The translations under genes were made by a program, and so were the position numbers. 64,000 nucleotides of DNA from contig CAWJVN010000002.1 in assembly GCA_963846365.1 (NCBI GenBank), positions 692,157 through 756,156 on the forward strand, written 5' to 3'. Position 1 is the stretch's first letter; each line of letters starts with the position of its first letter. The notes below the pieces were generated by a model, which saw only the letters and a list, made by a program, of their open reading frames with translations, searched no databases and was not told the origin of the DNA. Origin of the DNA: an uncultured Chloroflexia bacterium (lineage in GTDB: Bacteria; Chloroflexota; Dormibacteria; Aeolococcales; Aeolococcaceae). Positions 22,533 to 22,907 of the stretch are shown in pieces.

Positions 22533-22907
22533 ATGGCGCGAACGAACGACACCGCAAAATCAGAGTTGATGGCTGCTGGCGAGCCCGCCGAAGAGCAGCG
22601 AGAGCCGGTGATGGGCCCTCTCGAGACCCCGGAAAGGCAGGCACACCCGGTGATGGGTGCCATCGAGACCCCGGAGCGGCAGGCGCACCCCGTGATGGGC
22701 CCTCTCGAGACCCCGGAGAGGCGGGCGCACCCCGTCATGGGTGCCATCGAGACCCCGGAGCGGCAGGCGCACCCCGTCATCGGTGCCATCGAGACCCCGG
22801 AGAGGCAGGCGCACCCGGTCATGGGGGCCGTCGAGACCCCCCCGGAGAGGCAGGCGCAACCGACGCCGCGAGGTCGCGACTCCCAGACCGACCGTCGTGG
22901 CGGCTGA
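22533..22907 (+). CDS. Tandem-repeat protein, six 14-aa units PVMG(P/A)(L/I)ETPERQAH
   Basis: GGAGG-type RBS (GAAGGAGCGAcaATG); 124 aa, no signal peptide; repeats are His/Met/Pro/Glu-rich. Confidence 0.55.
   Translation: MARTNDTAKSELMAAGEPAEEQREPVMGPLETPERQAHPVMGAIETPERQAHPVMGPLETPERRAHPVMGAIETPERQAHPVIGAIETPERQAHPVMGAVETPPERQAQPTPRGRDSQTDRRGG
22605..22859 (+). repeat. 42-bp tandem repeat x6 (two alternating sub-types), in frame with CDS 22533-22907
   Basis: Units ccggtgatgggccctctcgagaccccggaaaggcaggcacac and ccggtgatgggtgccatcgagaccccggagcggcaggcgcac alternate; the last unit carries an extra ccc. Confidence 0.85.

Follow-up and report, generated by a model that had tools for sequence, protein, structure and literature searches.

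When a short tandem repeat lies inside an open reading frame (ORF), does it encode a protein, or is the frame open only because the repeated unit happens to contain no stop codon? The question is raised by a locus in a 64-kb stretch of DNA from an uncultured Chloroflexia bacterium (contig CAWJVN010000002.1), called the window throughout, in which a 42-bp minisatellite takes up most of a 124-residue ORF on the plus strand (22533-22907). A first-pass annotation of the window, made from its letters without database searches, had described the locus as a plausible gene with six in-frame 14-residue units and had suggested either metal binding or a disordered repeat protein as its role. The explanation favoured here, with reasonable confidence though well short of certainty and on the evidence of sequence analysis, is a disordered repeat protein, specific to its lineage and possibly of de novo origin, encoded by an in-frame 42-bp minisatellite. 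All statements on the uniqueness of the array and of its motifs hold within the 64-kb window.

The 42-bp array and its open reading frame

Tandem Repeats Finder delimited a period-42 array at 22621-22858 (5.6 copies, 86% matches, score 337), reported also in a period-84 version (3.0 copies, score 377), and this is the only strong tandem array that the program found in the window. When the units were tabulated, aligned and compared in an identity matrix, six clear 42-bp units were placed at 22605-22859 of the plus strand, preceded in register by a decayed unit, u0 (ELMAAGEPAEEQRE, 22563-22604, plus strand). The decayed unit matches the consensus at 24 of 42 positions, while random 42-mers match it at 12.2 positions on average (sd 3.0) and only 0.025% of them reach 24; a second repeat search puts the start of the array at 22567. 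The complete array, with one decayed and six clear units (about seven in total), extends over 22563-22859 and covers about 80% of the ORF. Its conserved 24-nt core occurs five times at three or fewer mismatches, against none expected, and is found nowhere else. Neither does the unit appear to be a copy of a segment of another gene, as no other 14-residue stretch encoded in the window reaches 8 of 14 identities to it in any rotation. The GC content is 72-75% in the array, 61.5% in the 5′ flank (22400-22599) and 69.1% on average in the window, so that the low-GC island in which the first-pass annotation had placed the repeat is real for the 5′ flank and does not include the array itself.

Read in the frame of the ORF, units 1 to 6 encode PVMGPLETPERQAH, PVMGAIETPERQAH, PVMGPLETPERRAH, PVMGAIETPERQAH, PVIGAIETPERQAH and PVMGAVETPPERQAQ, which can be written as PVMG(P/A)(L/I/V)ETPER(Q/R)A(H/Q), each unit joining conserved residues, ETPERQAHPVMG, to a dipeptide that varies between PL, AI and AV. 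Unit 6 is 45 bp long owing to an in-frame 3-nt CCC insertion that adds a proline, and it carries Gln in place of His. The two sub-types, P-L and A-I, had been thought to alternate along the array; they do so in units 1 to 4 only, since unit 5 is again A-I and unit 6 is A-V. Units two positions apart are identical at 38/42 and 40/42 nucleotides, whereas adjacent units share 35/42. That the former are more alike than neighbours indicates an 84-bp higher-order duplication, in which units 1 to 4 represent two 84-bp copies. Homogenised central units, decayed edges and a higher-order period are the usual footprint of slipped-strand mispairing or unequal recombination, and we infer that the array would have grown by one of these processes.

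The ORF, taken from the list of open reading frames and characterised by its codon score and by the properties of its product, runs from an ATG located 30 nt ahead of the array to a TGA, and comprises 10 unique N-terminal residues, the approximately seven repeat units and a 15-residue tail. A Shine-Dalgarno sequence, AAGGAG, read directly from the plus strand (22522-22527), lies 5 nt upstream of the ATG; AGGAG or GGAGG at -4 to -16 is found at just 3.1% of all ATGs in the window, which bears out the good ribosome-binding site noted at first. The predicted product is an acidic protein of 13.5 kDa (pI 5.4, grand average of hydropathy -0.99) with 18 Pro (14.5%), 17 Glu (13.7%), 15 Ala and 13 Arg, and contains no Cys, Trp, Tyr or Phe. 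In agreement with the first-pass annotation, it has no signal peptide, nor any membrane segment, its highest 12-residue hydropathy being 0.19 and its N-terminus reading MARTNDTAKSEL. AlphaFold2, run on the single sequence, gave no secondary structure, a mean pLDDT of 58 and a pTM of 0.11; the repeat region is therefore likely to be intrinsically disordered, as one of the two roles suggested beforehand would have it. Trypsin is predicted to release from the product the peptides QAHPVMGAIETPER and QAHPVMGPLETPER, both proteotypic, together with AHPVMGAIETPER, QAHPVIGAIETPER and QAHPVMGAVETPPER.

Divergence between the units preserves the peptide

The copies of the repeat carry a record of how the sequence has been allowed to change. 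There are 12 variable columns among the six units, and by codon position of the ORF eight of them fall at the third, three at the first and one at the second; one of the three first-position columns is moreover a synonymous AGG/CGG change. The ratio of nonsynonymous to synonymous differences between units (pN/pS) is 0.20 in the frame of the ORF, 0.37 in the antisense frame whose third positions coincide with those of the ORF, and between 1.5 and 7.6 in the other four. These values were compared with randomisations in which the patterns of the variable columns were assigned to randomly drawn positions and bases. When the ORF was required to stay open, a ratio of 0.20 or lower in its frame was obtained in 2 of 5000 trials (0.05% in a second run), and in any of the six frames it was obtained in 0.45%. 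The sole indel between units, of 3 nt, preserves the frame. Divergence between the units thus preserves the peptide encoded in the ORF frame.

The reference for codon usage was a set of 23 confidently called genes of the window. Scored against it, the frame of the ORF gives +0.22 bits per codon, the best of the six, where true genes have a mean of 0.36 (sd 0.16) and wrong frames a mean of -0.42. The consensus of the unit reaches 0.435 bits per codon, a value attained by about half of the 14-codon chunks taken in true frames and by 3.3% of those taken in wrong frames. The GC content at the first, second and third codon positions of the ORF is 0.75, 0.55 and 0.83, respectively.

Searches for relatives and the genomic neighbourhood

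Relatives of the product were sought at the protein and the nucleotide level. A word-indexed search of 5.8 billion protein clusters gave no match at E ≤ 0.01, and no record of the identical product was retrieved. With degenerate patterns and tblastn no match was obtained in GTDB species genomes, JGI metagenomes or IMG/VR, a tblastn search of plasmids gave none to the ORF, and PDB sequences yielded no meaningful match to the product. In Pfam no family was found at E ≤ 0.01 and noise alone at E ≤ 10, and NCBIfam likewise returned noise alone. The search for repeats of the type PVMG.LETPERQAH that the first-pass annotation had put forward as a check was in this way carried out and found no relative, and the lack of a known family that it had reported stands after the Pfam, NCBIfam, protein-cluster and HMMER searches.

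A full HMMER scan of 1.84 billion representatives produced 57 matches, all rejected because inspection showed them to be unrelated proteins, many of them eukaryote-like, that likewise carry tandem repeats about 14 residues long; the alignments set one repeat against another, and the scores are inflated by copy number. Among the small ones, the two with the greatest similarity have unrelated surroundings: P0028 lies on a 2.2-kb metagenome contig that does not share the context of the ORF, and P0052 on an apparently eukaryotic contig where the sole confident Pfam match is a BTB domain. A tblastn match of 37% identity was also obtained in the Microcystis phage Ma-LMM01 (NC_008562), with the translation ATPQRRAY.... 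The phage repeat has the same period (42 bp) and the same copy number (six) as the present array, but it belongs to a cyanophage, its copies are identical and it is annotated as a non-coding intergenic repeat_region. It was rejected as a homologue, as a short unit multiplied by its copy number most likely matches by chance, and it shows how easily such similarity arises in that way.

Two minus-strand genes border the 940-bp gap in which the ORF is located: a TPP-enzyme gene (20376-22169) with its start, and a GMC-oxidoreductase gene (23111-24364) with its end. The ORF is monocistronic, flanked by one divergent and one convergent operon. The divergent one is a cassette on the minus strand (16464-22169) that codes for the TPP enzyme, a 157-residue protein with no match in Pfam or NCBIfam, gluconate-2-dehydrogenase subunit 3, a GMC oxidoreductase and a short-chain dehydrogenase. 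The same order of genes is conserved, at 60-83% identity, in Dormibacterota, Acidimicrobiales, Solirubrobacterales, Verrucomicrobiota, Acidobacteriota and some Proteobacteria. Genes for an enolase-superfamily protein and a GH15 glycosidase often accompany the cassette, which has the appearance of a sugar-oxidation module that moves horizontally. The closest TPP enzymes (92%, 88% and 84% identical) are all encoded on metagenome contigs, and upstream of them there is either unrelated sequence or a TetR regulator. On the contig with the 88%-identical enzyme a divergent ORF of 76 residues (contig positions 43-273, minus strand; MCVSCGCGDVNTRH...) with a Cys-rich start lies upstream, and is unrelated to the repeat ORF. 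On the right side, in convergent orientation, lies the series DUF1326, PpoB2/DUF2182 (PF09948, 'copper chaperone', E = 9e-40) and GMC oxidoreductase. The first two genes form a pair on the minus strand (24368-25904) with an overlap of 11 nt, followed by the oxidoreductase gene, at 1.5-3 kb from the ORF. The best relatives of this PpoB2 in JGI metagenomes are at most 53% identical. LuxR-type regulators are the other neighbours. A plasmid origin of the region was considered and rejected, given that the plasmid matches are weak and concern the TPP-enzyme gene alone.

Between the ORF and the divergent operon there is an AT-flanked hairpin, AAAAACCCG-GCUGGU-CGGGUUUUUUU, found by folding both strands (stem-loop at 22417-22440, with a T-run to 22442; feature 22417-22442, both strands). 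It is unique in the window and has centroid energies of -10.9 and -12.4 kcal/mol on the two strands. Its shape is that of a two-way intrinsic terminator, although a scan with a terminator consensus made no call. The terminator-like hairpin of the first-pass annotation is accordingly present, but since it lies 90 nt upstream of the ATG it cannot terminate the repeat gene. Its role may be to shield the ORF from the divergent operon of the TPP enzyme or to stop transcripts that run leftwards.

Several conserved genes around the locus are interrupted. The GMC gene of the left cassette (17546-19148, minus strand) shifts frame near 18032, where there is a G/T homopolymer run; in the right GMC gene (23111-24390, minus strand) the GxGxxG FAD-binding N-terminus, DVMVVGAGSAGC, is encoded in another frame; and a LuxR-type regulator (AAA_16 ... 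GerE; 26030-28887, plus strand) is split into three overlapping ORFs. Either the region is decaying and these are pseudogenes, or the assembly contains indel errors.

Other features of the window were recorded as well. Two copies of a group II intron (347-2272 and 28977-30897, minus strand), 94-99% identical over about 1.9 kb, bracket a 26.7-kb segment that holds the repeat ORF; they match Rfam RF02005 at 2013-2236 (190 bits) and 30639-30859 (177 bits), and the reverse-transcriptase ORF is split in two in both. Farther downstream, an exact direct repeat of 41 nt (41999-42039 and 44350-44390) resembles the 3′ end of a tRNA (GGTTCGATCC...CACCA) and may mark the att sites of an integrated element; ARAGORN found no tRNA gene in the window. 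Beside it, a repeat of about 600 nt is present at 37060-37673 and 42043-42649 with 92-94% identity. Finally, a predicted protein encoded at 4470-5504 (plus strand) joins an ERCC4 nuclease domain to a C-terminal Lsr2 DNA-binding domain, an unusual fusion which, taken on the sequence alone, was the best clue to the source and would suggest Actinomycetota.

Alternative readings and comparison with known systems

Whether the ORF is a gene has to be decided against a number of observations that speak to the contrary. For the 39 unique codons lying outside the array the score is -0.057 bits per codon, a value as low as which is seen in 5.9% of true-gene chunks and as high as which is seen in 22% of wrong-frame ones, and a sliding scan finds positive coding potential over the array only; with flanks that look non-coding, the codon signal comes down to a single sample of 14 codons observed six times over. 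The array is open in four of its six frames, so that openness by itself is weak evidence of coding. The variable columns are few (12) and are linked by concerted evolution. A consensus scan of 21900-23400 gave neither a sigma-70-like promoter nor a terminator, and the frameshifts in nearby conserved genes mean that the assembly may hold indel errors. As no collection searched contained a homologue, conservation cannot back the gene call, and both array and ORF are absent at 80 GTDB loci and six metagenome contigs that carry the TPP enzyme (at most 92% identical). The absence of the ORF beside its closest TPP-enzyme relatives makes it lineage-specific. The open frames, the look of the flanks and the lack of homologues are what would be expected of a non-coding intergenic minisatellite, i.e., a variable-number tandem repeat (VNTR), in which the ORF is incidental in 69%-GC DNA where stops are rare, because a unit without stops and with a length divisible by three keeps the frame open in any number of copies. 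Arrays of this kind are common, since those with a period of at least 18 and at least 2.8 copies account for 48 rows of Tandem Repeats Finder output, about 25 separate arrays, in 1.7 Mb of fetched high-GC loci, and the repeat of phage Ma-LMM01, annotated as non-coding, shows that 42 bp repeated six times can have a similar translation by chance. What a non-coding repeat does not account for is the three-base periodicity of the variable sites (p about 0.005 at a pN/pS of 0.20, allowing for six frames), the strong Shine-Dalgarno sequence at the correct spacing, the gene-like codon usage of the unit and the in-frame indel. On balance we consider a non-coding VNTR a doubtful though serious alternative, and hold that the ORF is rather probably a translated gene.

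The true gene might lie on the other strand, as the antisense ORF at 22415-22978 (minus strand, 187 residues), with Cys-rich repeats (GCACLSGVSMAPMT) and with the upstream hairpin as its terminator. This frame shares the third codon positions of the plus-strand ORF, its pN/pS of 0.37 is reached in 2.2% of the randomisations, and its stop codon (22415-22417) abuts the hairpin on the minus strand. Yet its codon score is -0.14 versus +0.22 for the plus frame, the GC content at its codon positions (0.58, 0.71 and 0.77) is not gene-like, its GTG start lacks a Shine-Dalgarno sequence, and it has neither homologues nor a family match, all of which makes it very unlikely. Equally improbable is a phased array of DNA-binding sites, iteron- or operator-like, for a nearby LuxR or TetR regulator. 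The 42-bp unit would span four helical turns of 10.5 bp, the array lies in the 940-bp gap beside the promoter region of the divergent operon, and the A-I units contain a small dyad, GATGG-GTG-CCATC; this dyad is broken in the P-L units, though, the variable sites follow codon periodicity and not the pattern of a binding site, no replication gene is adjacent, and the relatives of the TPP operon lack the array. The small size of the protein, its near-identical tandem units and the absence of a signal peptide would also suit a multi-core precursor of a ribosomally synthesised and post-translationally modified peptide (RiPP), with 14-residue units excised and modified as in cyanobactins or thiovarsolins, and a sub-threshold NCBIfam match to a RiPP peptide was obtained at noise level (E = 0.077, 13 bits against a cutoff of 55). 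Against such a precursor, which we regard as extremely improbable, stand the monocistronic gene, the lack of relatives in the collections searched, and the absence of a maturase, protease, radical-SAM enzyme, YcaO, cyclase or exporter among the ORFs scanned (about 12-29 kb of the window). A check for leader and core found in the units a conserved part and a variable dipeptide, and no recognisable protease site or known leader motif. Two classes were discarded on direct grounds. A structured RNA was rejected as dinucleotide shuffles of the array fold better than the array itself, whichever strand is taken (z of the array = +1.45 and +1.05), and Rfam gave no match in the region at gathering score, just noise of E ≥ 0.08 upstream; a CRISPR array was rejected, as it had been in the first-pass annotation, because the units follow one another head to tail and leave no spacers between them.

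The suggestion of metal binding calls for closer consideration. According to it, the product would be a disordered protein binding a soft metal (Cu(I), Ag(I) or Ni) through H-x-x-M sites, acting with the DUF1326-PpoB2 operon in the manner of SilE/PcoE. Four HPVM motifs (residues 38, 52, 66 and 94) do recur at 14-residue spacing, and PpoB2 (PF09948) and DUF1326 are encoded only 1.5-3 kb away. PpoB2 has been implicated in the transfer of copper to tyrosinase (PMC2855505), and SilE, disordered when free, binds Ag+ through HxxM and MxxH motifs (PMC5008109). Nevertheless, the recurrence of H-x-x-M noted at the outset is incomplete: one further site reads HPVI, no MxxH occurs in the product, and two of the five amino acid changes between units hit the proposed ligands, Met to Ile in unit 5 and His to Gln in unit 6. 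Each 14 residues hold a single His and a single Met, and the Pro at +1 of His together with Gly-Pro or Gly-Ala after Met rules out the helical i/i+3 geometry of SilE, a protein that has a 20-residue signal sequence, paired motifs and helical i/i+3-4 geometry (PMC5008109). The present product has no signal peptide, unlike SilE, and no Cys for cytoplasmic Cu(I). The PpoB2/DUF1326 operon, being convergent, is not co-transcribed with the repeat gene; no comparable repeat ORF was found at 39 fetched loci of PpoB2 relatives, and among the scanned ORFs there is no tyrosinase or other copper enzyme or gene. No match to the SilE/PcoE family was obtained in Pfam, NCBIfam or PDB sequences. With Pro after each His, ligands that are not preserved, no match to a metal-related family and a convergent PpoB2 operon, the Cu/Ni binding proposed in the first-pass annotation is weakened to an unlikely reading.

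Taking into account that: (i) the divergence between units preserves the peptide, (ii) the frame is preceded by a well-spaced Shine-Dalgarno sequence, and (iii) the codon usage of the unit resembles that of the genes of the window, we return to the disordered repeat protein as the preferred explanation. The gene would be translated into a cytoplasmic, acidic, proline-rich and intrinsically disordered protein of 13.5 kDa, which would display six evenly spaced copies of the short linear motif E-T-P-E-R-Q-A-H-P-V-M-G. If it is functional, the protein would most likely act by binding a partner, be it a protein, a nucleic acid or a metal ion, with low affinity and in a multivalent manner, rather than by catalysis. 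Because its unique flanks look non-coding and no homologue was found, the gene is probably young and possibly arose de novo from intergenic DNA. Tentatively, and with clearly less confidence than is placed in the repeat protein as such, a birth can be imagined in which a 42-bp minisatellite of intergenic DNA grew in frame downstream of an ATG and a Shine-Dalgarno sequence that were there by chance, and is now translated and under purifying selection; that HPVM units would in addition bind soft metals beside the DUF1326-PpoB2 operon is a less likely extension of this scenario.

If de novo birth were the case, the locus would represent a rare and datable case in which the expansion of a repeat gave rise to a gene in a prokaryotic chromosome. 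Translation alone would make it a clean, small example of a tandem-repeat expansion creating a new disordered protein in a bacterial chromosome, one in which the internal copies record selection on the peptide despite the lack of homologues, and which bears on the debate about the origin of prokaryotic orphan genes. The array is besides a likely variable-number marker for its lineage. No new molecular system is indicated, as no partner genes, conserved context or known function are attached to the ORF.

Several known systems resemble the locus in part. The mycobacterial interspersed repetitive units used as variable-number tandem repeats (MIRU-VNTR) are minisatellites dispersed at many loci of one genome. 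Like them, the present array is a minisatellite with a unit of 40-100 bp located between genes of a high-GC bacterium and with a copy number that is likely to vary; unlike them, it occurs once in 64 kb, has its own ATG and Shine-Dalgarno sequence and shows constraint at the peptide level. CopA and CopB of Pseudomonas syringae are large secreted or outer-membrane copper proteins with Met/His octapeptide repeats that contain several Met per unit. The likeness to them lies in a short tandem peptide with His and Met in a protein linked to copper handling, whereas the repeat ORF is small, lacks a signal peptide and has one Met and one His per 14 residues. With SilE/PcoE the product shares its small size, predicted disorder and recurring H-x-x-M. 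Its motifs are single and proline-flanked, whereas those of SilE are of the paired, helix-compatible type MxxHxxxxxHxxM, and no helix is predicted here; no sil, pco or cus efflux genes are present among the scanned neighbouring ORFs, and SilE is not a tandem array at the DNA level.

Of the kinds described so far, the locus comes closest to nucleotide tandem repeats that lie in frame and make a disordered amino acid repeat, as they occur in Borg elements. In these archaeal elements, amino acid tandem repeat (aaTR) proteins and 'de novo repeat peptides' have been described (Schoelmerich et al. 2023, PMC9879509), some of the ORFs are repeat over nearly their entire length and lack homologues, and the repeats are perfect or nearly so and A-rich (PMC9879509). 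The repeat ORF has the traits by which aaTR are recognised, that is, a unit length divisible by three, an uninterrupted ORF with start codon and ribosome-binding site, constraint on the peptide and a region predicted here to be disordered, and it resembles the Borg repeats also in the partial or decayed units at the edges of the array. It differs from them in its host, a high-GC bacterium, and in being a single array rather than a genome-wide phenomenon, as well as in its units, which are GC-rich, share about 86% identity and differ from one another mainly at synonymous sites. Such imperfect and mostly synonymous divergence suggests an older array maintained under constraint at the level of the peptide.

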